A stretch of 11,750 nt of DNA. Source: a virus. Its lineage: Duplodnaviria > Heunggongvirae > Uroviricota > Caudoviricetes. Numbering within the stretch: position 1 is the first letter of the stretch; each line of letters starts with the position of its first letter. A program made the position numbers and the translations under genes. A model generated the notes under the pieces. The model saw nothing but the letters and a program-made list of their open reading frames with translations. It made no database searches and was not told the origin of the DNA. Of this stretch, positions 1-11,750 are shown in pieces. The DNA lies in the IMG/VR virus record IMGVR_UViG_2585427760_000003. The stretch is one strand, 5' to 3'.

Positions 1-264
1 GTATTCGGTGAACGCACTATGGCGACGCTGGGGCGTCTTATGAGCCTGCTGTCACCCTTTGACGTGGTGATATGGATGACGGATGGCTGGCCGCTGTATG
101 AATCCCGCCTGAAGGGAAAGCTGCACGTAATCAGCAAGCGATATACGCAGCGAATTGAGCGGCATAACCTGAATCTGAGGCAGCACCTGGCACGGCTGGG
201 ACGGAAGTCGCTGTCGTTCTCAAATCGGTGGAGCTGCATGACAAAGTCATCGGGCATTATCTGA
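1..264 (+). CDS. insB: IS1 transposase InsB, C-terminal portion (5' end outside window); C-terminus differs from canonical InsB, consistent with a 1-nt deletion in the A-run at 222-224
   Basis: Frame-1 translation [74 protein letters not shown] matches InsB; after SFS the frame gives [13 protein letters not shown] whereas one extra A restores [20 protein letters not shown] ending at TAA 282-284. Confidence 0.85.
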
Positions 265-276
265 ACATAAAACACT

Positions 277-299
277 ATCAATAAGTTGGAGTCATTACC
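277..299. repeat. IS1 terminal inverted repeat (IRR), ~23 bp
   Basis: Sequence ...caataagttggagtcattacc, complement of the GGTAATGACTCCAACTTATTG IS1 end; abuts fimZ-derived sequence at position 300. Confidence 0.8.
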
Positions 300-693
300 G
301 CGTTTCGCTGGGAAAAAACGTGTATCCGGAGAGGATCATCTGAACGGCATGAAAAATATCATTCTGATCATTGCATTTACTGACAAAACCGTTAGCACCA
401 GCTTGTATCGCTCTGCCAGCATAAAAGCATTCTGATTTCGATGATAAAAATAACACTTTCACTGTGCTCTGGATTTGTTTGATCCTTTTCAGGAAGGTAA
501 AACCGTCTGTTCCGGGCAAGTCTATATCCATAATGATTAAATCAACAGGACGGGTTCGGAGATAATCGATGGTTATGCGGTAATCATCCGTTTTCAGGAC
601 AATCTGCAATTCACTGTTTTTTTGCAACAGAACTTCAATAGACATTCTGATGATAGGATGAGTATCCATAATGATCACCGACGTTGGTTTCAT
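295..693 (-). pseudogene. fimZ: fimZ response regulator (LuxR family), 3'-truncated by the IS1 insertion; encodes receiver domain only and loses the C-terminal HTH
   Basis: Minus-strand translation MKPTSVIIMDTHPIIRMSIEVLLQKNSELQIVLKTDDYRITIDYLRTRPVDLIIMDIDLPGTDGFTFLKRIK...SGYTFFPSET matches E. coli FimZ residues 1-131 from memory; the frame then reads R and a TAA stop (295-297) supplied by the IS1 end instead of native ...LNYIKSN. Upstream in-frame Met at 756 is probably not the start. Confidence 0.85.
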
Positions 694-935
694 AGTTACC
701 AGTCTCATAGGAGCGGACAATTTTCCGTTAGGGCGGTAAATTGTACTTTGATACATGAAAATACGGGTTTTCTTGATTCAGACGCGCAGCGATGTGCATT
801 TGTTTGCCGCTATAGCGAAATAAATCAGAAAATCAGACGCGGTCGTTCACTTGTTCAGCAACCAGATCAAAAGCCATTGACTCAGCAAGGGTTGACCGTA
901 TAATTCACGCGATTACACCGCATTGCGGTATCAAC

Positions 936-1012
936 GCGCCCTTAGCTCAGTTGGATAGAGCAACGACCTTCTAAGTCGTGGGCCGCAGGTTCGAATCCTG
1001 CAGGGCGCGCCA
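936..1012 (+). tRNA. argU: tRNA-Arg (anticodon UCU)
   Basis: 77-nt cloverleaf GCGCCCTTAGCTCAGTTGGATAGAGCAACGACCTTCTAAGTCGTGGGCCGCAGGTTCGAATCCTGCAGGGCGCGCCA; acceptor stem GCGCCCT/AGGGCGC, anticodon loop CTTCTAA with TCT at 970-972, T-loop GTTCGAATC, 3' CCA. Confidence 0.95.
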
Positions 1013-1027
1013 TTACAATTCAATCAG

Positions 1028-2191
1028 TTACGCCTTCTTTATATCCTCCATAATTCCAGAGTGGGACATATTTGGGACATTATCACCAAAAATGTCGTCT
1101 ATTTTCCTCGCATGCTCTGTCAAATGATTAGGCGCAAGGTGAGCATACCTACGAACCATTTCTATGGACTCCCATCCGCCCATTTCCTGAAGCACTGATA
1201 ATGGGACGCCTGACTGAATCAGCCAGCTTGCCCAGGTGTGTCTGAGGTCATGGAAACGGAAATCTTCAATTCCTGCACGACGACAAGCTGATAGCCATGA
1301 TGTCTTGCTGTCGATGCGCATCTTCCTGACCGCAGGCGTTGATGTTCCATCTGCTCGCTTAGCCGCCTTGGTATGTACAAACACCCATTTGTGATGCTTG
1401 CCTATTTGATCACGCAACACTTTACAGGCGGTATCGTTCAGCGCCACACCAATGGCGCGGTTTGATTTGCTCTCTTCTGGATTCACCCAGGCAACTCGTC
1501 GCTGCATGTCGATTTGTTGCCATTCCAGATTTATGATGTTCGACTTTCTCAGACCAGTTGCCAGCGCAAACTTGACGACAGATTTCAGTGGTTCGGGGCA
1601 CTCATCAATAAGGCGTTTTGCTTCCTCCTTTTCCAGCCATCTGACTCGCTTGTTTCTGACCGCTGGTATCTTGATGACAGGCGCTTTTTCCAGCCACTTC
1701 CAGTCGCGTTCTGCAGCACGGAGAATGGCCTTTATCATGGCAAGATGCTTTGCCTTTGTCTGAGTTGATACTGGCTTTGGTTCATAAACAGGCAGTTCTT
1801 TACCTTTCCTGATGGCGGCCTGAACTTTCTGTTTCCATATTTCTTTCGTCTTTCTGTTATGCATTCTGCTTACAGCAGAGTAAATCTTTGCCTCCGAGAT
1901 ATCTTTAAGCCTTATACCCTCAAAATGTTCAAGCCAGAACTCAATCCGGCTTTTATCTGAATCGAGAGATTTTTTATCAGCTTTTTCCTCAAGCCATCTT
2001 AGGCAGGCCTCTTCAAAAGTGACATCAGGTAAATCCCCTAGCTTTTCTACTCGCCAGAGTTCTGCTTTTCGCTTGTCGTGCAACTCCTGAGCTTGCCGCT
2101 TGTCCTTTGTGCCAAGAGATTCCTTAATTCGTTTCCCGCCCGGGAGCGAATACGAGGCATACCATATTTCATTTCTGCGGAAGAGTGACAT
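1028..2191 (-). CDS. intD: Prophage integrase, tyrosine recombinase family (DLP12 IntD-like), 387 aa
   Basis: 387-aa minus-strand ORF immediately adjacent to the tRNA 3' end; C-terminal catalytic region with [11 protein letters not shown] and VRRYAHL (catalytic Tyr) motifs; N-terminus [35 protein letters not shown]. Confidence 0.93.
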
Positions 2192-2418
2192 TTTCTTTCC
2201 TCTGTTATGCCATCACCCGCGCTCACCTGGACAGTATGCAGCGGAGACTGAAGCGCCGCAATGCAGGCTTGCCGTGTTGTGAGGTAAGGAGATTTTGGCT
2301 TGGTTGGATCTTTACGTGTTGCCTGTAGGCGGCCTGTTCGTATCCAGTTGGTGGCGGTTGGTCTGGATATCTTAAGAAACTGACAGGCCTCATCGAGTGT
2401 GAGGCTGTATGATTCCAT
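2047..2418 (-). CDS. Excisionase-like HTH protein (AlpA/Xis family); ORF is unusually long (123 codons) and overlaps the integrase start by 145 nt, so the 3' extension may not be genuine
   Basis: ATG at 2418-2416 preceded by GAGGT SD; N-terminal [31 protein letters not shown] resembles the HTH of AlpA-type excisionases; position directly upstream of int. Confidence 0.6.
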
Positions 2419-2668
2419 GGTTACCTCTGCTTTTTGAACGCATGTCACGTAACTTCTTAATGTGTTCTGCCGTTTCGATCTCTTCTGCTATCCGATCTGC
2501 ATCAGCTTTATTCACAGGTTCAAAGTCATGATTAAAGCGGAACATGCTGGCGATACATGTTCTGCCTTTTCGGATGTAGTGAACTTTGTTGTGGGTAGAA
2601 CGCAGGATTTTGCAGGGAGTGCCGTGGTGGTCGACGTACCAGGTGTTAGGAAAAATGATTCTGAACAT
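2390..2668 (-). CDS. Hypothetical protein, 92 aa (no family recognised)
   Basis: ORF with GAGGTG SD 5 nt upstream of ATG at 2668; codirectional with and between the TraR-like gene and xis; overlaps the xis start by 29 nt. Confidence 0.5.
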   Translation of the reverse strand: MFRIIFPNTWYVDHHGTPCKILRSTHNKVHYIRKGRTCIASMFRFNHDFEPVNKADADRIAEEIETAEHIKKLRDMRSKSRGNHGIIQPHTR

Positions 2669-2715
2669 TTTTACACCTCAGTTGGACGATGTTGAAATTT
2701 GCTGCTTTGAGGCCA

Positions 2716-2934
2716 TCACAGTCCCCATTGTTTGTTCTTAAGTTCGATCTCCTCCTGGCAACTCGCACAAGTCCGACAACCCTGAACAGCCAGGCGTCTT
2801 CGCTCATCTATCGGATCGCCACACTCACAACAATGAGTTGCGGATACAGTCTGGTAGTTCAGACGACGCATTTTTATTGCTGTATTGCGCTGTAATTCTT
2901 CGATTTCTGATGCTGAATCAATGATGTCTGCCAT
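2716..2934 (-). CDS. TraR/DksA-family C4-type zinc-finger protein, 72 aa
   Basis: Translation contains CECGDPIDERRRLAVQGCRTCASCQ, matching the TraR/DksA signature (compare F-plasmid TraR CEACGNPIPEARRKIFPGVTLCVECQ from memory). Confidence 0.75.
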   Translation of the reverse strand: MADIIDSASEIEELQRNTAIKMRRLNYQTVSATHCCECGDPIDERRRLAVQGCRTCASCQEEIELKNKQWGL

Positions 2935-2985
2935 CTTTCATTAATCCCTGAATTGTTGGTTAATACGCTTGAGGGTAAATGCGAA

Positions 2986-3011
2986 TAATAAAAAAGGAGC
3001 CTGTAGCTCCC
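2986..3011 (-). terminator. Candidate rho-independent terminator or attenuator on the minus strand, upstream of the TraR-like gene
   Basis: Minus-strand RNA GGGAGC-UACAG-GCUCCU followed by UUUUUUAUUAUU; short stem (5-6 bp), so weak; lies inside a 29-codon minus-strand ORF (2941-3030). Confidence 0.4.
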
Positions 3012-3161
3012 TGATGATTTTGCTTTTCATGTTCACCGTTCCTTAAAGACGCCGTTCAACATGCCGATCGCCATGCTTAAATGAGTCGGTGTGAATCCCA
3101 TCAGCGTTACCGTTTCGCGGTGCTTCTTTAGTATCTGGCTGAAAGAGGGGGTTATTAAGGC

Positions 3162-3524
3162 GTGAATACCTACAGCATCACATTACCCTGGCCTCCGAGC
3201 AATAATCGCTATTACCGCCATAATCGCGGGCGCACGCACGTCAGCGCAGAGGGGCAGGCATACCGCGATAACGTCGCCCGAATCATTAAAAACGCAATGC
3301 TGGATATCGGCCTGGCTATGCCTGTGAAAATCCGCATTGAGTGCCACATGCCGGATCGCCGTCGCCGTGACCTGGATAATCTGCAAAAAGCCGCTTTTGA
3401 CGCACTCACTAAAGCAGGTTTCTGGCTGGATGATGCTCAGGTCGTTGATTACCGCGTTGTGAAGATGCCTGTTACCAAAGGTGGGAGGCTGGAACTGACC
3501 ATCACCGAAATGGGGAATGAATGA
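3162..3524 (+). CDS. rusA: Holliday-junction resolvase RusA (crossover junction endodeoxyribonuclease), 120 aa, GTG start
   Basis: Translation [120 protein letters not shown] matches E. coli RusA from memory. Confidence 0.93.
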
Positions 3525-3661
3525 TGTTTGAGTTTTATATGGCAGAACTTCTTCGCCACCGCTGGGGGCATCTGCGCTTATATCGTTTCCCCGGTTCTGT
3601 TTTGACCGATTACCGAATACTGAAGAGTTACGCCAAAACCCTGACAGGAGCAGGAGTATGA
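3521..3661 (+). CDS. ylcG: Small nin-region protein YlcG-like, 46 aa
   Basis: ATG overlaps the rusA stop (ATGA); translation [46 protein letters not shown]; below the 60-aa ORF-track cutoff, identified by hand translation and synteny between rusA and quuD. Confidence 0.75.
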
Positions 3662-3746
3662 AGTCAGAGATAACAATCAACTAATACTGTTTTGTTGATT
3701 TTTGCTTGTAATTGGCGTTTTGGTCTGATTTTTGTGGAGTAAGTTG

Positions 3747-4130
3747 ATGCGTGATATTCAGATGGTTCTTGAGCGTTGGGGAGCGTGGGCGGCTAATAAT
3801 CATGAAGATGTGACCTGGTCGTCCATTGCCGCCGGTTTTAAGGGATTAATTCCTTCAAAAGTAAAATCTCGCCCGCAATGTTGTGACGATGACGCGATGA
3901 TCATTTGCGGGTGCATGGCCCGTCTGAAAAAGAACAACAGCGATTTGCACGATTTATTAGTAGATTATTATATAGTCGGTATGACATTCATGTCACTGGC
4001 AGGTAAGCATTGCTGCTCTGATGGTTATATCGGGAAAAGGTTACAAAAGGCTGAGGGCATAATTGAAGGGATGTTAATGGCATTAGATATCCGGTTAGAG
4101 ATGGATATCGTTGTTAATAACTCTAATTAA
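3747..4130 (+). CDS. quuD: Late-gene antiterminator Q homolog (phage-82-type Q, DLP12 QuuD), 127 aa
   Basis: [67 protein letters not shown]...; ATG at 3747 with GGAG SD at 3736-3739; the ORF track starts at an upstream TTG (3732), which I consider less likely. Confidence 0.88.
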
Positions 4131-4150
4131 TACGCCAATTATTTACTAAA

Positions 4151-4181
4151 AGTTATTAAAAATGGGGCGTTGAAGCGCCCC
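4151..4181 (-). terminator. Rho-independent terminator on minus strand (GC-rich hairpin plus U-tract), likely ending the nmpC transcript
   Basis: GGGGCG (4164-4169) / CGCCCC (4176-4181) stem with 6-nt loop; on the minus strand it is followed by AUUUUUAAUAACU. On the plus strand it is followed by an A-run, so it is not a plus-strand terminator. Confidence 0.6.
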
Positions 4182-4318
4182 CAAAAATAAAGGGTAATAT
4201 ATAACAGAAGGTTTGTATAGTTAGAAGCAAGGTTGTGCTTCTAAAGGAAGTGGCTTGAGGGAGCCACTTATATGTTGGGGAGGCAAAGCCTCCCACAACA
4301 TATCTTTTAGTAATCAAA

Positions 4319-5401
4319 TTAGAACTGGTAAACCATACCTACAGCAACGATATCATCGGTAGCAACGCCAGATGCTTTCGTGAAATCGCTCTTATCAATC
4401 AGGTTGATTTTGTAGTCAACAAAAGTGGACATATTTTTGTTGAAGTAATAGGTTGCACCTACATCAACATATTCAACCAGGTCCTGATCACCCCAAACAC
4501 CCAAGTCTTTTCCTTTAGAATGCAGGTAAGCAACGGATGGACGCAGGCCGAAGTCGAACTGATATTGTGCAACAGCTTCGAAGTTTTGTGCTTTGTTGGC
4601 AATATGGTTATTACCAAAAACAGTCATGTTCTGGGTTTCAGAATAGGTGGTGGCCAGATAGATGTTGTTCGCATCATATTTCAGACCAGCTGCCCATACT
4701 TCAGCATTTTGACCAGAAGCATTCAGACCGTTGTTACCGTAGATAACCTGATTATTAGTGCGATCAGATTTAGCATAGGTTGCACCCACGCCGAATCCTT
4801 CATACTCATAAGTAGTTGAGAAACCGAAACCATCGCCATTAGCTTCAGTTACTTCATTTCGGTCATTTTTGCCCTGATACTGAGCTGCAAAGTTCAGGCC
4901 ATCAACCAGACCAAAGAAGTCGTTGTTACGATAAGTTGCAACACCTGTGGTGCGACCAGTCATGAACACATCTGTTTGGGTCCAGGTATCGCCACCGAAT
5001 TCTGGCAGAACGTCAGTCCACGCACCGATGTCGTATGCTACACCGTAGTTACGGCCGTAATCGATTGAGCCGTAGTCACCGAATTTCAGGCCAGCGAAGG
5101 CAAGACGGGTTTTATCTTTGGAGGAACCTTGAGATTCAGCGCGGTTGCCTTTGAATTCATATTCCCACTGACCGAAACCAGTCAGTTGATCGTTGATTTG
5201 GGTTTCACCTTTGAAGCCAAGACGGGCATAAGTAGTATCACCATCATCTGCATCATTAGAGGAGAAGTAGTGCTTAGCATTAACTTTCCCGTACAGATCC
5301 AGCTTGTTACTGTCTTTATTATAAATTTCAGCTGCCTGAGCAGACATCGCCATCAGTACTGATGCAGCTACAGCAGAAATTGCCACTGTTAATTTTTTCA
5401 T
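4319..5401 (-). CDS. nmpC: Outer-membrane general porin NmpC (OmpC/OmpF/PhoE family), apparently intact, 360 aa
   Basis: Signal peptide [23 protein letters not shown] then [16 protein letters not shown]; porin motifs throughout; C-terminal ...VGMVYQF typical of beta-barrel porins; placed on the opposite strand between Q and the lysis genes as in DLP12. Confidence 0.9.
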
Positions 5402-5829
5402 CGTGAGCCCTTTTTTTTGAACTATTATTAAAAAATGATGTCACTGCGCGATAAATATTCATCTAATCAATGTGATTATTTCAAGATGTAAGTTTTGGTT
5501 TCTCGTTTAATTTGTGAAGTAGATCTCTATTTTTATCTGAACTTTTTTCTATCGAATCCTATTCATGGCTCTTGGCTGAATAAAAATAAATCTATTAGCC
5601 AATTTATATTAATGGCTGTTATTTATAAGTGCTCTATAATTTGAAGGTTCAATTTAAATTGGCTAAAAATAACGCTGGAAATTATTTGTTGGTTATTTGT
5701 TGAGATTTTCTTATGTATTTGTAGTGGTGTTTTCAATACTCGGTAGCATTCTCGCAAATATCATTTAGTGGTTTACGTACGTAAAAAATTGGTTATGCTG
5801 TTAAGAGTGGTTACTTCGTTACACAGCTT

Positions 5830-5862
5830 AAACCCGCCGTCGAGCGGGTTTTTCCATTTTTT
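5830..5862 (+). terminator. Rho-independent terminator upstream of essD; candidate tR'-like terminator of a short late-promoter transcript
   Basis: AACCCGC (5831-5837) / GCGGGTT (5844-5850) stem, 6-nt loop, followed by TTTCCATTTTTT; sits ~110 bp upstream of the holin start. Confidence 0.55.
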
Positions 5863-5974
5863 GAGTCTCGATATTAGCTGATAACCCAATACCTGAGTTA
5901 TTCACTGACTCCGAGTCTGTTACGTTTCGTAGTATTCCCTCAATTTACACCCGCTTTGTCTGCGAGGTGGGGTT

Positions 5975-6190
5975 ATGAAATCCATGGATAAGTTAACAAC
6001 GGGTGTCGCCTATGGCACCTCAGCAGGTAGTGCCGGGTACTGGTTTTTACAGCTGCTCGATAAAGTCACGCCCTCACAGTGGGCAGCAATAGGTGTGCTG
6101 GGTAGCCTGGTATTTGGCCTGCTGACGTACCTGACAAACCTTTATTTCAAGATTAAAGAAGATAAGCGCAAGGCTGCGAGAGGTGAATAA
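5975..6190 (+). CDS. essD: Phage-21-type class II holin (pinholin S21 homolog) with dual-start motif, 71 aa
   Basis: [71 protein letters not shown]; two TM segments; Met1 and Met4 (5975 and 5984) give the holin/antiholin dual start; GAGGTGG SD upstream. Confidence 0.9.
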
Positions 6191-6687
6191 TGCCTCCATC
6201 ATTACGAAAAGCTGTTGCTGCTGCTATTGGTGGCGGGGCTATTGCTATAGCATCTGTGTTAATCACTGGCCCAAGTGGTAACGATGGTCTGGAAGGTGTG
6301 AGACATAATCCTTACAAAGACATAGTTGGTGTATGGACTGTATGTTACGGGCATACAGGAAAAGACATCATTCCCGGTAAAACGTATACCGAAGCAGAGT
6401 GCAAAGCCCTCCTGAATAAAGACCTTGCCACTGTCGCCAGACAAATTAACCGGTACATCAAAGTCGATATACCGGAAACAACGCGCGGCGCTCTTTACTC
6501 GTTCGTCTACAACGTGGGTGCTGGCAATTTCAGAACATCGACGCTTCTTCGCAAAATAAACCAGGGTGATATTAAAGGCGCATGTGATCAGCTACGGCGC
6601 TGGACATACGCTGGCGGTAATCAATGGAAAGGACTGATGACTCGCCGTGAGATTGAGCGTGAAGTCTGTTTGTGGGGGAAACAATGA
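6190..6687 (+). CDS. rrrD: SAR endolysin (T4-lysozyme-like muramidase with N-terminal signal-anchor-release domain), 165 aa
   Basis: N-terminal Gly/Ala-rich hydrophobic SAR segment [20 protein letters not shown] followed by lysozyme catalytic region [23 protein letters not shown]; start overlaps the essD stop (TAATG). Confidence 0.9.
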
Positions 6688-7142
6688 GCAGAGTAACCGC
6701 GATTATCTCCGCTCTGGTTATCTGCATCATCGTCTGCCTGTCATTGGCTGTTAATCATTACCGTGATAACGCAATCGCCTACAAAGAGCAGCGCGATAAC
6801 AAGGCCAGTGAACTGGAGAAGGCGAACGCCACCATCGCTGACATGCGGAAGCGTCAACGTGATGTAGCAGAACTCGACGCAAGATACACAAAGGAGCTTG
6901 CTGATGCTAACGCGACTATCGAAAGTCTCCGTGCTGATGTTTCTGCTGGGCGTAAGCGCCTGCAAGTCGCCGCCACCTGTGCAAAGTCAACGACCGGAGC
7001 CAGCGGCATGGGCGATGGAGAAAGCCCAGGACTTACAGCAGATGCTGAACTCAATTATTACCGTCTCCGAAGTGGAATCGACAAGATAACCGCGCAGGTT
7101 AACTACCTGCAGGAATACATCAGGACGCAATGCCTGAAATAA
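6684..7142 (+). CDS. rzpD: Spanin inner-membrane subunit Rz (i-spanin), 152 aa
   Basis: ATG overlaps the rrrD stop (ATGA); N-terminal TM segment [20 protein letters not shown] then coiled-coil-like periplasmic domain; ORF track starts at an upstream GTG (6672). Confidence 0.85.
6904..7089 (+). CDS. rzoD: Spanin outer-membrane lipoprotein subunit Rz1 (o-spanin), embedded in the +1 frame of rzpD, 61 aa
   Basis: AAGGAG SD at 6891-6896, ATG at 6904; lipoprotein signal [20 protein letters not shown] with lipobox Cys, proline-rich mature region [13 protein letters not shown]; fully nested inside rzpD. Confidence 0.75.
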
Positions 7143-7174
7143 TTTTTTTGCAAATCACAAAGTCCATTTAATGA

Positions 7175-7198
7175 GCCTCGCGATGCGGGGCTTTTTTT
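7175..7198 (+). terminator. Rho-independent terminator after the lysis cassette
   Basis: GCCTCGC-GAT-GCGGGGC stem-loop (7 bp including one G-U) followed by TTTTTTT, ~33 bp downstream of the rzpD stop. Confidence 0.65.
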
Positions 7199-7437
7199 AC
7201 ATCTGAATTTCACAGCGCATCTCACGCGCATATTACATCACCCGAGCCTTTCAGAAAGTTGAGCCTGAGAACTGCCGTATATGGTGGCGACCATCTCGGG
7301 GCGGCTTTTCTGTGAGACAGGCTCACTTTCTAAAAGGTAAAGACGCTATGAACCAATTAGAAGAAAAGCTTCAAAGAATGATTTCCTTATACAAGGAAGA
7401 TAACTGCCAAAAAGTTCCTTAAAACATCGCAGAGTTA

Positions 7438-7836
7438 ATGGAATTGGCAAGTGAATTTTCTGGCATGCTTAAGTCGTCAGGTGTTCGGTCAGCGTTCTTT
7501 GTTGAAATGCTGATGCACGGCGGACTTATGGCAACAATGAGACGTGTAATGGAAGACCAGAGAAAAGAACCTCCTCAGGTATACGTTTTGTCATCGAAGA
7601 AAACTGGGCTAACCAAAATTGGGTATTCATCCAACATTCCACAACGCATCAAATCGCTTGGCAACTCTGGACCAGACTGCTTGAAGCTTGAGTGCCTGAT
7701 CCCTGGTGGAAGAGAAACTGAAAACATGCTTCATCGCAAATTTGCCGCAAAGAGAAAGCACGGTGAATGGTTCGCCCTGTCCAAGGATGACATTGAGGGA
7801 TTGAAATCTGTAGCGATTACTTCTGATGGCTATTAA
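7438..7836 (+). CDS. T5orf172 / GIY-YIG-like domain protein, 132 aa (cargo gene at the position occupied by bor in lambda)
   Basis: C-terminal ~85 residues QVYVLSSKKTGLTKIGYSSNIPQRIKSLGNSGPDCLKLECLIPGGRETENMLHRKFAAKRKHGEWFALSKDDIEGL fit the T5orf172 pattern as I recall it (YVL...KIGYT/S...R...EWF); weak SD; an upstream in-frame 24-codon ORF (7348-7422) is separated by a single TAA. Confidence 0.6.
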   Translation: MELASEFSGMLKSSGVRSAFFVEMLMHGGLMATMRRVMEDQRKEPPQVYVLSSKKTGLTKIGYSSNIPQRIKSLGNSGPDCLKLECLIPGGRETENMLHRKFAAKRKHGEWFALSKDDIEGLKSVAITSDGY

Positions 7837-8514
7837 TGCTTGTTTAGAGCAATTTTCATAACAACTCTTCATTACAAAGCCCATCTACTGGTGGGCTTGA
7901 TAATGAAACCGTGATTTACATCCCCACAATCCGGGTATGTAAAAGATAGTTCAGGCGAGAACGGATTTAACTAAATCTGTGCGCCACCAGTTAACGGCAG
8001 TACCACGAAACAACCCAAGCCAGTAAGTGGGGAAATAACACCGGCAGCCACTGAAAGATGAACCTCCTGCCTTATGGCAAAAAAGATTCTTTGTGGTGGC
8101 GGACTGATGGAAAGACATCCTAATTTCAGCCAAACATTGAAGGAGTTGTTATGTCAGCAGAAGGTTTCAATAACCCATCAAAATTCCGGGATGAGTGGGA
8201 TAGCAGCGTAAAGAGTAAGTGATGCCATCACAAAAGCCATTCCCTACAGAGTGGCTTTGATAATGGCTTATACCCTACACGGGATAACTTAACTGATATC
8301 CTTTTTAAAGGATAAAGGTATTCAAGCCTGACACATCATGCGCTGTATCGTCGCCGTATTCCCGTATTAACAGAGACCGTAGCCCGACGGGGAACTCCTT
8401 CTGCGCGAGTGTGCGGGAATAATCAAAAACGATGCACACCGGGGTTACCGGGTACACATATTTCATCATGCCAGCGAGTCCGGTTCTGGCACGGAAGAAA
8501 CCGGACGTTATGAT

Positions 8515-8925
8515 TTAGTGCGGAAATATTTGTGTAGTGTTCTGAATGTTCTCAGTAAAGAGTAATGAATTATCAAAGGTATAGTAATACCTTTTGTTTT
8601 CGTGGATATTTGTAATCCATCTGAAAACCCCTGCTGTAGCAAGATTTTTCCTGTATTCGTAAAATGATAACTCTCCTGATTTGAATCCTTTTAATGTGGT
8701 TTCTATAAGGCATTTATTTTTTGAAAATCTTACATTTACAACCTTACCCTGTCCTTTTATTAAAACCGTATTATCGTTTTCAAGAACAAGATGAATATTC
8801 TCTGTGGCTAAATAGTAAATGTAATGTGAGACATTGTGACGTTTTAGTTCAGAATAAAACCAGTGATAGTTTAAATTATTTCGCACTTTATCGAATATTT
8901 GTTTAAAAATGGCAACCTGAGCCAT
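8515..8925 (-). CDS. Hypothetical AT-rich protein, 136 aa, no signal peptide or TM segment; possibly equivalent to the protein annotated in K-12 DLP12 as YbcV (recollection, unverified)
   Basis: Minus-strand ORF in a visibly AT-rich segment; likely start at the second Met (8925, GGAAGG-like SD 7 nt upstream) giving [31 protein letters not shown]...; Tyr/Asn-rich, soluble-looking. Confidence 0.6.
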
Positions 8926-8982
8926 TGTAGTACCTTCCATGTGATATGAAGGTACCTAGTCTGCACGATTATCTAAATTGCT

Positions 8983-9216
8983 TCAATCTGGTCTGACCTG
9001 CTTTCTGAGCAATTCAGTAATGTCACTCTTTTCTTTGTTTGCTTCAGGCGAAACTCTTTTTTCTGAGCACAGTCTTCGGCGGCAGGCTTCAATGACCCAG
9101 GCTGAGAAATTCCCGGACCCTTTTTGATCAAGAGCGATGTTAATTTGTTCAATCATTTGGTTAGGAAAGCGGATGTTGCGGGTTGTTGTTCTGCGGGTTC
9201 TGTTCTTCGTTGACAT
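8983..9216 (-). CDS. Small putative ribbon-helix-helix (CopG/Arc-like) DNA-binding protein, 77 aa
   Basis: Basic N-terminus MSTKNRTRRTTTRNIRFPNQMIEQINIALDQKGSGNFSAWVIEACRRRL fits a beta-strand/helix/helix RHH layout; codirectional with and 57 bp upstream of the 136-aa gene; ~200 bp from cosN. Confidence 0.5.
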   Translation of the reverse strand: MSTKNRTRRTTTRNIRFPNQMIEQINIALDQKGSGNFSAWVIEACRRRLCSEKRVSPEANKEKSDITELLRKQVRPD

Positions 9217-9359
9217 GAGGTTGTCCCGTATTCAGTGTCGCTGATTTGTATTGTCTGAAGTTGTTTTTACGTTAAGTTGATGCAGATCAATTAATATGAT
9301 ACCTGCGTCATAATTGATTATTTGACGTGGTTTGATGGCGTAGATGCACGTTGTGACAT

Positions 9360-9604
9360 GCAGATGATAATTATTATCATTTTGCGGGTCCTTTCCGGCG
9401 ATCCGACAGGTTACGGGGCGGCGACCTCGCGGGTTTTCGCTATTTATGAAAATTTTCCGGTTTAAGGCGTTTCCGTTCTTCTTCGTCGTAACTTAATGTT
9501 TTTATTTAAAATACCCCCTGAAAAGAAAGGAAACGACAGGTGCTGAAAACGAACTTTTGGGCCTTTGTCGTTTCCTTTCTCTGTTTTTGGCCGTGGAATG
9601 AACA
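9360..9604. other. Lambda-type cos site: cosQ/cosN/cosB, with the cosN 12-nt cohesive-end sequence GGGCGGCGACCT at 9416-9427
   Basis: 9380-9600 is near-identical to my recollection of the lambda genome left end and preceding right end (..GTTACG GGGCGGCGACCT CGCGGGTTTTCGCTATTTATGAAAATTTTCCGGTTTAAGGCG...); inverted Nu1-binding R-site-like repeats AGAAAGGAAACGACAG / CTGTCGTTTCCTTTCT at ~9523-9580. Confidence 0.85.
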
Positions 9605-10429
9605 ATGGAAGTCAACAAAAAGCAGCTGGCTGACATTTTCGGTGCGAGTATCCGTACCATTCAGAACTGGCAGGAACAGGGAATGCCCGTTCTGCGAGGC
9701 GGTGGCAAGGGTAATGAGGTGCTTTATGACTCTGCCGCCGTTATAAGATGGTATGCCGAAAGGGATGCTGAAATTGAGAACGAAAAGCTGCGCCGGGAAG
9801 TTGAAGAACTGCGGCAGGCCAGCGAGACAGATCTCCAGCCAGGGACTATTGAGTACGAACGCCATCGACTTACGCGTGCGCAGGCCGACGCACAGGAGCT
9901 GAAAAATGCCAGAGACTCCGCTGAAGTGGTGGAAACCGCATTCTGTACTTTCGTGCTGTCGCGGATCGCAGGTGAAATTGCCAGTATTCTCGACGGGATC
10001 CCCCTGTCGGTGCAGCGGCGTTTCCCGAACGGCACGGTCGATGTGTTCCGCGGCTGGGTCAGCAGTATCGGTAAGGCGGTGACGGCGAAGGAAGTGATTA
10101 CCCGCACGGTGAAAGTCACCAACGTAGGACGTCCGTCGATGGCAGAAGATCGCAGCACGGTAACAGCGGCAACCGGCATGACCGTGACGCCTGCCAGCAC
10201 CTCGGTGGTGAAAGGGCAGAGCACGACGCTGACCGTGGCATTCCAGCCGGAAGGCGCAACCGACAAGAGCTTCCGTGCGGTGTCTGCGGATAAAACAAAA
10301 GCCACCGTGTCGGTCAGTGGTATGACCATCACCGTGAAAGGTGTTGCTGCAGGCAAGGTCAACATTCCGGTCGTATCCGGTAATGGTGAGTTTGCTGCGG
10401 TTGCAGAAATCAACGTCACCGCCAGTTAA
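9605..10429 (+). CDS. nohD: Chimeric ORF: terminase small subunit Nu1 homolog (residues ~1-140) fused in frame to the C-terminal Ig-like (Big_2) domain of major tail protein V; 274 aa
   Basis: [46 protein letters not shown]...[14 protein letters not shown] matches lambda Nu1; from ...[60 protein letters not shown]... to ...AEINVTAS matches the lambda gpV C-terminus from memory; switch at ~10018-10027 within shared CGTTTCCCG. The nohD symbol applies to the Nu1-like part only. Confidence 0.85.
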
Positions 10430-10444
10430 TCCGGAGAGTCAGCG

Positions 10445-10795
10445 ATGTTCCTGAAAACCGAATCATTTGAACATAACGGTGTGACCGTCACGCTTTCTGA
10501 ACTGTCAGCCCTGCAGCGTATTGAGCATCTCGCCCTGATGAAACGACAGGCAGAACAGGCGGAGTCAGACAGCAACCGGAAGTTTACTGTGGAAGACGCC
10601 ATCAGAACCGGCGCTTTTGTGGTGGCGATGTCCCTGTGGCATAACCATCCGCAGAAGACAAAGCTGCCTTCTATGAATGAATTGGTGCTCATACGCACTC
10701 CGTTGCGATTGGTTCACATGGACACACCATCACCGTTAACGCTGCTGGTAACGCGGAAAACACCGTCAAAAACATCGCATTTAACTATATTGTGA
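10445..10795 (+). pseudogene. Tail assembly chaperone G remnant (first ~79 codons) joined out of frame to the 3' end of a side tail fiber (stf) gene
   Basis: MFLKTESFEHNGVTVTLSELSALQRIEHLALMKRQAEQAESDSNRKFTVEDAIRTGAF..WHNHPQKT..PSMNE matches lambda gpG; from ~10681 a different frame reads [41 protein letters not shown] (stop 10804-10806), the His-x-His-rich C-terminus of Stf-type tail fibers. Confidence 0.8.
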
Positions 10796-10805
10796 GGCTT
10801 GCATA

Positions 10806-11390
10806 ATGGCATTCAGAATGAGTGAACAACCACGGACCATAAAAATTTATAATCTGCTGGCCGGAACTAATGAATTTATTGGTGAAGGTGATGCATATAT
10901 TCCGCCTCATACAGGTCTGCCAGCAAACAGTACCGATATTGCACCGCCAGATATTCCTGCTGGCTTTGTGGCTGTTTTCAACAGTGATGAGGCATCGTGG
11001 CATCTCGTTGAAGACCATCGGGGTAAAACGGTTTATGACGTAGCGTCAGGGGACGCGTTATTTATTTCTGAACTCGGTCCGTTACCGGAAAATGTTACCT
11101 GGTTATCGCCGGAAGGGGAGTTTCAGAAGTGGAACGGCACAGCCTGGGTGAAAGATGCAGAAGCAGAAAAACTGTTCCGGATCCGGGAGGCGGAAGAAAC
11201 AAAAAACAGCCTGATGCAGGTAGCCAGTGAGCATATTGCGCCACTTCAGGATGCTGTAGATCTGGAAATCGCAACGGAGGAAGAAACCTCATTGCTGGAA
11301 GCCTGGAAAAAGTATCGGGTGTTGCTGAACCGTGTTGATACATCAACTGCACCTGATATTGAGTGGCCTACGAACCCTGTCAGGGAGTAA
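10806..11390 (+). CDS. tfaD: Tail fiber assembly protein Tfa, 194 aa, intact
   Basis: [79 protein letters not shown]... is near-identical to lambda Tfa with scattered substitutions; ATG overlaps the stf-frame stop (TAATG). The tfaD symbol is by synteny with DLP12. Confidence 0.85.
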
Positions 11391-11444
11391 TCATTGGGAT
11401 TATGCCGCAGCACGTCTTAAGCAAGAACGTGCTGCGGTTGGATG

Positions 11445-11750
11445 CTATTTTTTCCCTGAAGCGGAAAACATTACTACAGTACCTTGAACCTTGGTTTTAA
11501 CATTCTCGAAATGCTCTGAGAGTATATGTGTTAAGCCTTCTTCGGAATCTTTTGTGTTTGAAAAGATGCCTTTCTGATTGTAAATGCGCATCAGTTTTTG
11601 ACCGAAGCTATTGTGCACAACTCCATCGCCAAGAATTGTGGCTCCGTATAGAGTTCCATCGTCAGTTAAGGCCTGCGCCGCATTGCGTATTACACAGCTT
11701 TTTGTAGATATATTTCCAGGCAGGCAGTGAAGAAGGTAAAACATGGAAAT
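11445..11750 (-). CDS. Hypothetical protein, C-terminal portion (5' end probably beyond the window edge)
   Basis: Minus-strand ORF open to the window edge (two further in-frame codons upstream of the ATG at 11744); no family recognised; position corresponds to the gene convergent with tfa in lambdoid prophages. Confidence 0.4.
   Translation of the reverse strand: MSMFYLLHCLPGNISTKSCVIRNAAQALTDDGTLYGATILGDGVVHNSFGQKLMRIYNQKGIFSNTKDSEEGLTHILSEHFENVKTKVQGTVVMFSASGKK

Follow-up and report, generated by a model that had tools for sequence, protein, structure and literature searches.

Our analysis indicates that a copy of IS1 has inserted at nucleotide 394 of fimZ, cutting the receiver domain of this response regulator from its helix-turn-helix so that the activator would be lost, and that the single A missing from the IS1 sequence beside it is most likely a consensus fault propagated through the draft assembly. 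We hold this account, taken as a whole, to be likely. In particular, the missing A cannot be assigned to the IS1 copy that disrupts fimZ, because it is common to at least 15 IS1 right ends of the same assembly (JOSR01) and is absent from the same junction elsewhere.

The window, by which we mean the whole stretch of 11,750 nt that was analysed, is the complete draft contig JOSR01000016.1 (assembly GCA_000713815.1). Its source is probably Escherichia coli 1-250-04_S3_C2, the name borne by protein records with identical sequences. The left edge of the window is no arbitrary cut, being a contig end within multi-copy IS1, and the fact that the window is an entire contig ending in a repeat governs how its first 299 nt can be read. 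At its right end (11445-11750) the contig breaks off inside the gene of a class I SAM-dependent methyltransferase, and no IS sequence is seen there; in the complete genome 14EC033 there is an IS1 about 0.7 kb beyond the position that matches this end. The features on which the argument draws are the following.

1..299, plus strand: 3' part of IS1 (nt 469-768 minus nt 690), with the end of insB' and the right inverted repeat, from alignment and PF03400
19..264, plus strand: 81-aa ORF, C-terminal part of insB' with a frameshifted tail, from the gene call at the contig end
222..224, plus strand: AAA in place of the usual AAAA of IS1, nt 690 of the element being absent, from alignment to three IS1 copies
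272..299, plus strand: right terminal inverted repeat of IS1 (IRR, about 28 bp), ending ...GGAGTCATTACC, identical to annotated IS1 ends
295..693, minus strand: truncated fimZ ORF, receiver domain only, with 131 native codons (693..301) followed by CGG and TAA
300..308, no strand assigned: presumed 9-bp IS1 target GCGTTTCGC, as suggested by the 9-bp duplications at other IS1 insertions in fimZ
936..1012, plus strand: tRNA-Arg gene with anticodon UCU (argU), from ARAGORN and the annotation of matching loci
1028..2191, minus strand: intD-type integrase gene, which opens a DLP12-like prophage remnant (context only)

The junction and the truncated regulator

By alignment, the first 299 nt of the window differ from the annotated 768-bp IS1 of PI12, PCP07083 and H9Ecoli in a single respect, namely one missing A. 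The IS1 terminus, ...GTTGGAGTCATTACC, falls at 299, in three genomes the annotated IS1 has the same right end as bases 272-299, and the partial IS1 ORF matches DDE_Tnp_IS1 (PF03400) in Pfam. Bar that one base, the terminus and the 3' region of insB' are those of the IS1A/IS1B-type 768-bp elements that inactivate E. coli genes. Unlike a full IS1, the window shows only the last 299 nt of the element, its left end, insA, the A6C frameshift site and the target duplication lying outside the contig. The organization of IS1, the cis preference of its transposase and its target duplication of 8-9 bp have been described (PMC12903888, PMC12428005), and the length that we use for the right inverted repeat, about 28 bp, is that given in PMC12903888.

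Base 300 of the window is nucleotide 394 of fimZ and the first base of codon 132, and the alignment thus puts the junction at 299/300, just where the original prediction, made from the letters alone, had the right end of IS1 abut fimZ at about codon 132. In the intact allele of 14EC033 the presumed target, GCGTTTCGC, is preceded by 40 nt of 22.5% G+C. The case resembles IS1 insertional inactivation in E. coli both in this AT-rich-flanked target and in the existence of sister insertions in fimZ with 9-bp duplications.

What does the insertion leave of FimZ? The CGG (Arg) that follows the native codons takes its C from fimZ (position 300) and its GG from IS1, and the TAA (297..295) also comes from IS1. 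In Pfam the resulting 132-aa product matches Response_reg (PF00072) at residues 6-118 with E = 4e-28 and has no match to the GerE/LuxR helix-turn-helix (PF00196), which the intact 210-aa FimZ encoded at the same locus of 14EC033 carries at residues 149-204. Judged from its sequence, then, the 132-aa product is a fragment of FimZ and not a functional member of the family. Reading frame and Pfam here bear out the earlier proposal that the LuxR-type helix-turn-helix is replaced by an arginine and a stop, leaving a receiver-only ORF.

That the fragment derives from FimZ, a response regulator of the NarL/FixJ type (LuxR C-terminal), is indicated by the identity of its residues 1-131 to the 14EC033 protein and by the adjoining argU. 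The fimZ gene lies beside argU in the fim/sfm layout of Salmonella LT2 and E. coli K-12 (PMC3604780), and argU, besides being a conserved neighbour of fimZ, is a prophage attachment site. The expected position of fimZ is between sfmF and argU, and 14EC033 has the full order sfmF-fimZ-argU; in the window the argU side is present and IS1 stands in place of the sfmF side. Compared with FimZ of the Salmonella fim or E. coli sfm cluster, what is missing here is the GerE/LuxR helix-turn-helix. To judge by this domain content, a fragment without the helix-turn-helix should be unable to bind promoters, and FimZ would be lost as a transcription activator. Orthologous to the Salmonella fim cluster, sfm occurs in no more than about 65% of E. 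coli genomes; Shigella has it in incomplete form, and it is taken to be non-functional or diverged (PMC3604780). Because the cluster is so patchy and so often eroded in E. coli, we would expect the phenotype of its loss of activator to be small.

Could the fragment itself have a function, as a phosphate sink or as a dominant-negative partner, and so change the control of fimbriae or of other systems? Its receiver domain (6-118) is complete, the native promoter region is untouched, and the usual acidic, Ser/Thr and Lys positions, which from a reading by eye we take to be D10, D56, S84/85 and K106, are present. The cluster that it would serve, however, is sfm, which in E. coli is taken to have diverged or to be without function (PMC3604780). 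Moreover, IS1 insertions are found all along fimZ, including one at nt 77/78 that leaves no receiver domain, and this fits plain inactivation better than selection for a receiver-only product. We consider a functional fragment very improbable.

The insertion is, on comparison with 14EC033, a recent one, since in that genome fimZ is intact, as is the sfm operon, and the matching 11.4 kb is all but the same. Over the 11,451 nt of window 300-11750 there are 1 substitution and 0 indels. The sole difference lies at window position 11544 (G versus A). A metagenome contig with the nt-394 junction (L008) likewise differs from the window only once, at 3240.

The missing A

IS1 has AAAA in all three copies compared where the window, at 222-224, has three As, as the original prediction had it. 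The deletion of IS1 nt 690 moves the insB stop from TAA at 282-284, its normal place, to TGA at 262-264, so that the last 20 insB codons are replaced by 13; the shift was therefore correctly seen, while the earlier figure of about 24 shifted codons was slightly high. A reconstructed three-A InsB covers positions 1-113 of the 131 of the DDE_Tnp_IS1 profile in Pfam and the four-A form covers 1-131, the cost of the deletion being the last 18 positions. On mutagenesis of the C-terminal His-Arg-Tyr of the IS1 transposase, nothing usable was found in open-access text. Among complete E. coli genomes, 5,426 in number, a 63-nt three-A probe with the run at its centre matched exactly in 2 of 8,249 matching records (C227-11 and NCTC9040), with 8,172 records falling in the one-gap identity band, and a three-A 34-mer occurred once in 185,579 species-representative genomes.

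Is the missing A a mark of decay in this particular copy of IS1, as had been suggested? The base is indeed missing in the window, and isolated cases of frameshifted IS1 are on record, NCTC9040 having one copy annotated as 'frameshifted'. However, IS1 nt 690 is also missing at about 14 other IS1-ended contig ends of JOSR01, each with a different flank. The contigs concerned were located via frameshifted ORFs of 81, 74 and 62 aa called at contig ends, and are JOSR01000016, 130, 255, 153, 181, 108, 125, 134, 273, 288, 035, 069, 163 and 170; the IS1 stretches at their three-A ends are 226-333 nt long, and the other homopolymers within the JOSR01 IS1 ends are correct. One of these contigs, JOSR01000170.1 (836 bp), has an IS1 right end on either side, the two being inverted and separated by 288 bp; one shows three As and the other four, and hence the assembler did separate two versions.

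Nor does the same junction, where it has been sequenced elsewhere, show the deletion. JJLU01000022.1 (GCA_000627435.1) has the same fimZ::IS1 junction with 269 nt of IS1 and AAAA, and so does the human-gut metagenome contig ERZ917549, with 124 nt of IS1. Rightward from the junction both match the window without a difference for 814 nt, and they share its haplotype (G at window position 310, integrase side). E. coli 1-250-04_S3_C1, by its name apparently a sister colony, has a record of the 132-aa FimZ product too, and JJLU01, by elimination, is probably the assembly of that strain. At such a depth within a multi-copy repeat, moreover, the sequence of a contig end is not locus-specific. With the deletion present at about 14 other JOSR01 ends and four As at the same junction elsewhere, the notion of a decaying copy does not hold up, and we would give it next to no probability.

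The other explanation originally offered was a sequencing error in a homopolymer, and an error is indeed what we favour, not as a random miscall but at the level of the repeat consensus. The unique 11.4 kb of the window contains 187 homopolymer runs of at least 4 nt, and against 14EC033 none of them has an indel. A random homopolymer error was rejected on this ground and because the same position is affected 15 times.

Alternatively, the isolate may really carry the deletion as its predominant IS1 allele, the fimZ copy included, a lineage with an altered C-terminus having multiplied either through its own activity or through trans mobilization by a wild-type copy. Such an allele would account for the deletion at no fewer than 15 ends with different flanks while the other IS1 homopolymers and the 187 unique runs are correct; the four-A end in the same assembly could be the helper, the shifted tail is known from further isoforms and hosts of IS1, and the IS1 transposase acts in trans at raised levels (PMC12903888). 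On the other hand, the transposase prefers to act in cis (PMC12903888), among the 5,426 complete genomes and the 185,579 species representatives the allele scarcely occurs, and it would remove the last 18 of the 131 positions of a conserved profile. Most tellingly, the identical junction and flank are found with four As in the sister assembly and in the metagenome contig. These four As at the same junction tip the balance away from an isolate-wide allele, which we consider unlikely. The fuller claim, that IS1 without nt 690 is a real and recently mobile lineage with some 15 or more copies, the disruptor of fimZ among them, we regard as distinctly improbable. If it were true, either the last 20 residues of InsAB' would be dispensable, or one wild-type copy would amplify defective IS1 in trans, efficiently and despite the known cis preference.

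We thus return to an artefact of the repeat consensus as the most likely reading, with the isolate-wide allele the less likely one. A problem specific to JOSR01 is favoured because it is implausible that about 15 IS1 copies should have changed in concert by one base between clone-mates. In the mechanism that we envisage, one faulty consensus of the collapsed IS1 repeat in JOSR01 would have been propagated to many contig ends. The pattern is like that of collapsed-repeat consensus errors in short-read drafts in that the ends reach 226-333 nt into the IS, the same difference recurs, and it is absent from a sister assembly; it is unlike them in that the mechanism is here only surmised and one JOSR01 end has the normal four As. 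Several observations sit less well with an artefact. It is odd that a fault should strike one position of one repeat when the unique JOSR01 sequence is free of indels. The other homopolymers of the IS1 ends are correct, three-A and four-A ends coexist in JOSR01000170.1, and a second assembly, JNMJ01, carries the same deletion at three contig ends.

JNMJ01 is not the only further place where the shifted form turns up. MDES01 lacks IS1 nt 690 once, together with an additional one-base deletion, and E. coli 3-475-03_S1_C1 is a second strain named among the sources of the shifted InsB tail; most other strains named in the pattern of 1-250-04_S3_C2 have normal InsB fragments. The tail NRWSCMT(K/R)SSGII is found in records of NCTC-designated E. 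coli (NCTC9040), in Klebsiella pneumoniae (in another IS1 isoform) and in Citrobacter portucalensis, in single or few instances each, and once in the chromosome of Enterobacter hormaechei B17-3. The A4 run of IS1 is accordingly either a recurrent site of mutation or a recurrent site of error. The variant T444G was considered as a marker linking JOSR01 and JNMJ01 and was discarded, being a common IS1 polymorphism and so uninformative. In SCU-313, separately, IS1 has four single-base indel positions and both sfmF and fimZ bear frameshift annotations, a picture that points to an indel-prone assembly and not to biology.

The other end of the element

The left end of the IS1 lies off the contig, and two arrangements can be envisaged for it. 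A simple insertion with a 9-bp duplication would read ...ATATAGTTAAGCGTTTCGC followed, across the other junction, by GGTGATGCTGCC. The signature of the reciprocal fimZ junction would be ...TATATAGTTAAGCGTTTCGC and then GGTGATGCTGCC, with GCGTTTCGC on both sides of IS1 if the insertion is simple. Alternatively, the unseen end may abut something besides the 3' part of fimZ, the remainder of fimZ and the sfm genes having been removed by an IS1-mediated adjacent deletion or by IS1-IS1 recombination.

There are precedents for such a deletion. In PI12, PCP07083 and H9Ecoli, as in the window, the right end of IS1 is joined to the 5' portion of fimZ, at nt 394 (a junction identical to the present one), 383 and 412 respectively, and the other flank of IS1, which for the window is off the contig, is sfmA in PI12, folD in PCP07083 and a truncated sfmD usher gene in H9Ecoli. 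Genes such as these beyond IS1 imply that part or all of the sfm operon has been deleted in those genomes. In five of the eight complete-genome loci inspected, however, both halves of fimZ flank the IS1 (SCU-313, B19374, E54, pEcFELIX533.1 and ETEC1730), with exact 9-bp duplications in B19374 (nt 354), pEcFELIX533.1 (nt 285) and ETEC1730 (nt 400), and the relative 14EC033 keeps an intact sfm operon. A deletion on the far side of the element seems to us possible, if somewhat doubtful.

The reciprocal junction, that is, the 3' part of fimZ with GCGTTTCGC and an IS1 end, was found 0 times in metagenome contigs, where a control with the junction on the window side also gave 0, so that this zero carries no information. 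A 9-bp duplication gives no junction-specific ORF; the fusion ORFs predicted for duplications of 8 or 11 bp, in either orientation, had no match in a collection of 15 billion proteins. A generic 62-aa C-terminal fimZ ORF is present on 185 contigs and gives no pointer to the JOSR01 strain in particular.

Recurrence of IS1 in fimZ and its significance

The exact 132-aa FimZ product is on record for 27 contigs. Among the loci that we compared, the nt-394 junction is formed by the right end of IS1 in six and by its left end in four, where CGG TGA yields the same 132-aa protein, and the junction occurs both with and without a prophage beside argU. With both orientations represented, the site must have been hit independently at least twice. 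In complete genomes, IS1 is found in fimZ at nt 77/78, 285, 354, 383, 394, 400 and 412 (eight loci in all), and the insertions at nt 383, 394, 400 and 412 form a 30-nt cluster beside an AT-rich stretch. IS1 prefers AT-rich targets.

At the level of genes, 31 of the 5,426 complete genomes carry IS1 in the present orientation no more than about 1 kb from the junction, and about 21 more, among the matches listed, have an IS1 nearby in the opposite orientation. Both orientations together come to about 1% of the 5,426 genomes, a figure in which clonal kin are counted separately and from which we therefore claim no enrichment. One of the eight complete-genome loci inspected lies on a sequence labelled as a plasmid: pEcFELIX533.1 (NZ_CP137697.1, 128.8 kb) carries the chromosomal order sfmD-sfmH-sfmF-fimZ::IS1-argU-envY-ybcH-nfrA, which may be an F-prime-like capture or a misassembly. 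Judged by titles and abstracts, no literature concerning IS1 insertion in fimZ was found.

The inactivation of fimZ by IS1 is an ordinary event of a known kind. For the reading of draft genomes it carries a lesson of method, namely that sequence deep in a multi-copy IS at a draft contig end is not specific to the locus, and an apparent frameshift there is not to be taken for decay of that copy. Were the deletion allele real, it would bear on which portion of the IS1 transposase is indispensable. As to biology, the weight of the finding is small, the knockout by IS1 of a regulator in a patchy and often eroded fimbrial cluster being routine genome erosion. What does recur is the site: repeated IS1 hits at nt 383-412 of fimZ, with nt 394 used in both orientations, mark a natural hot spot for IS1 targeting.
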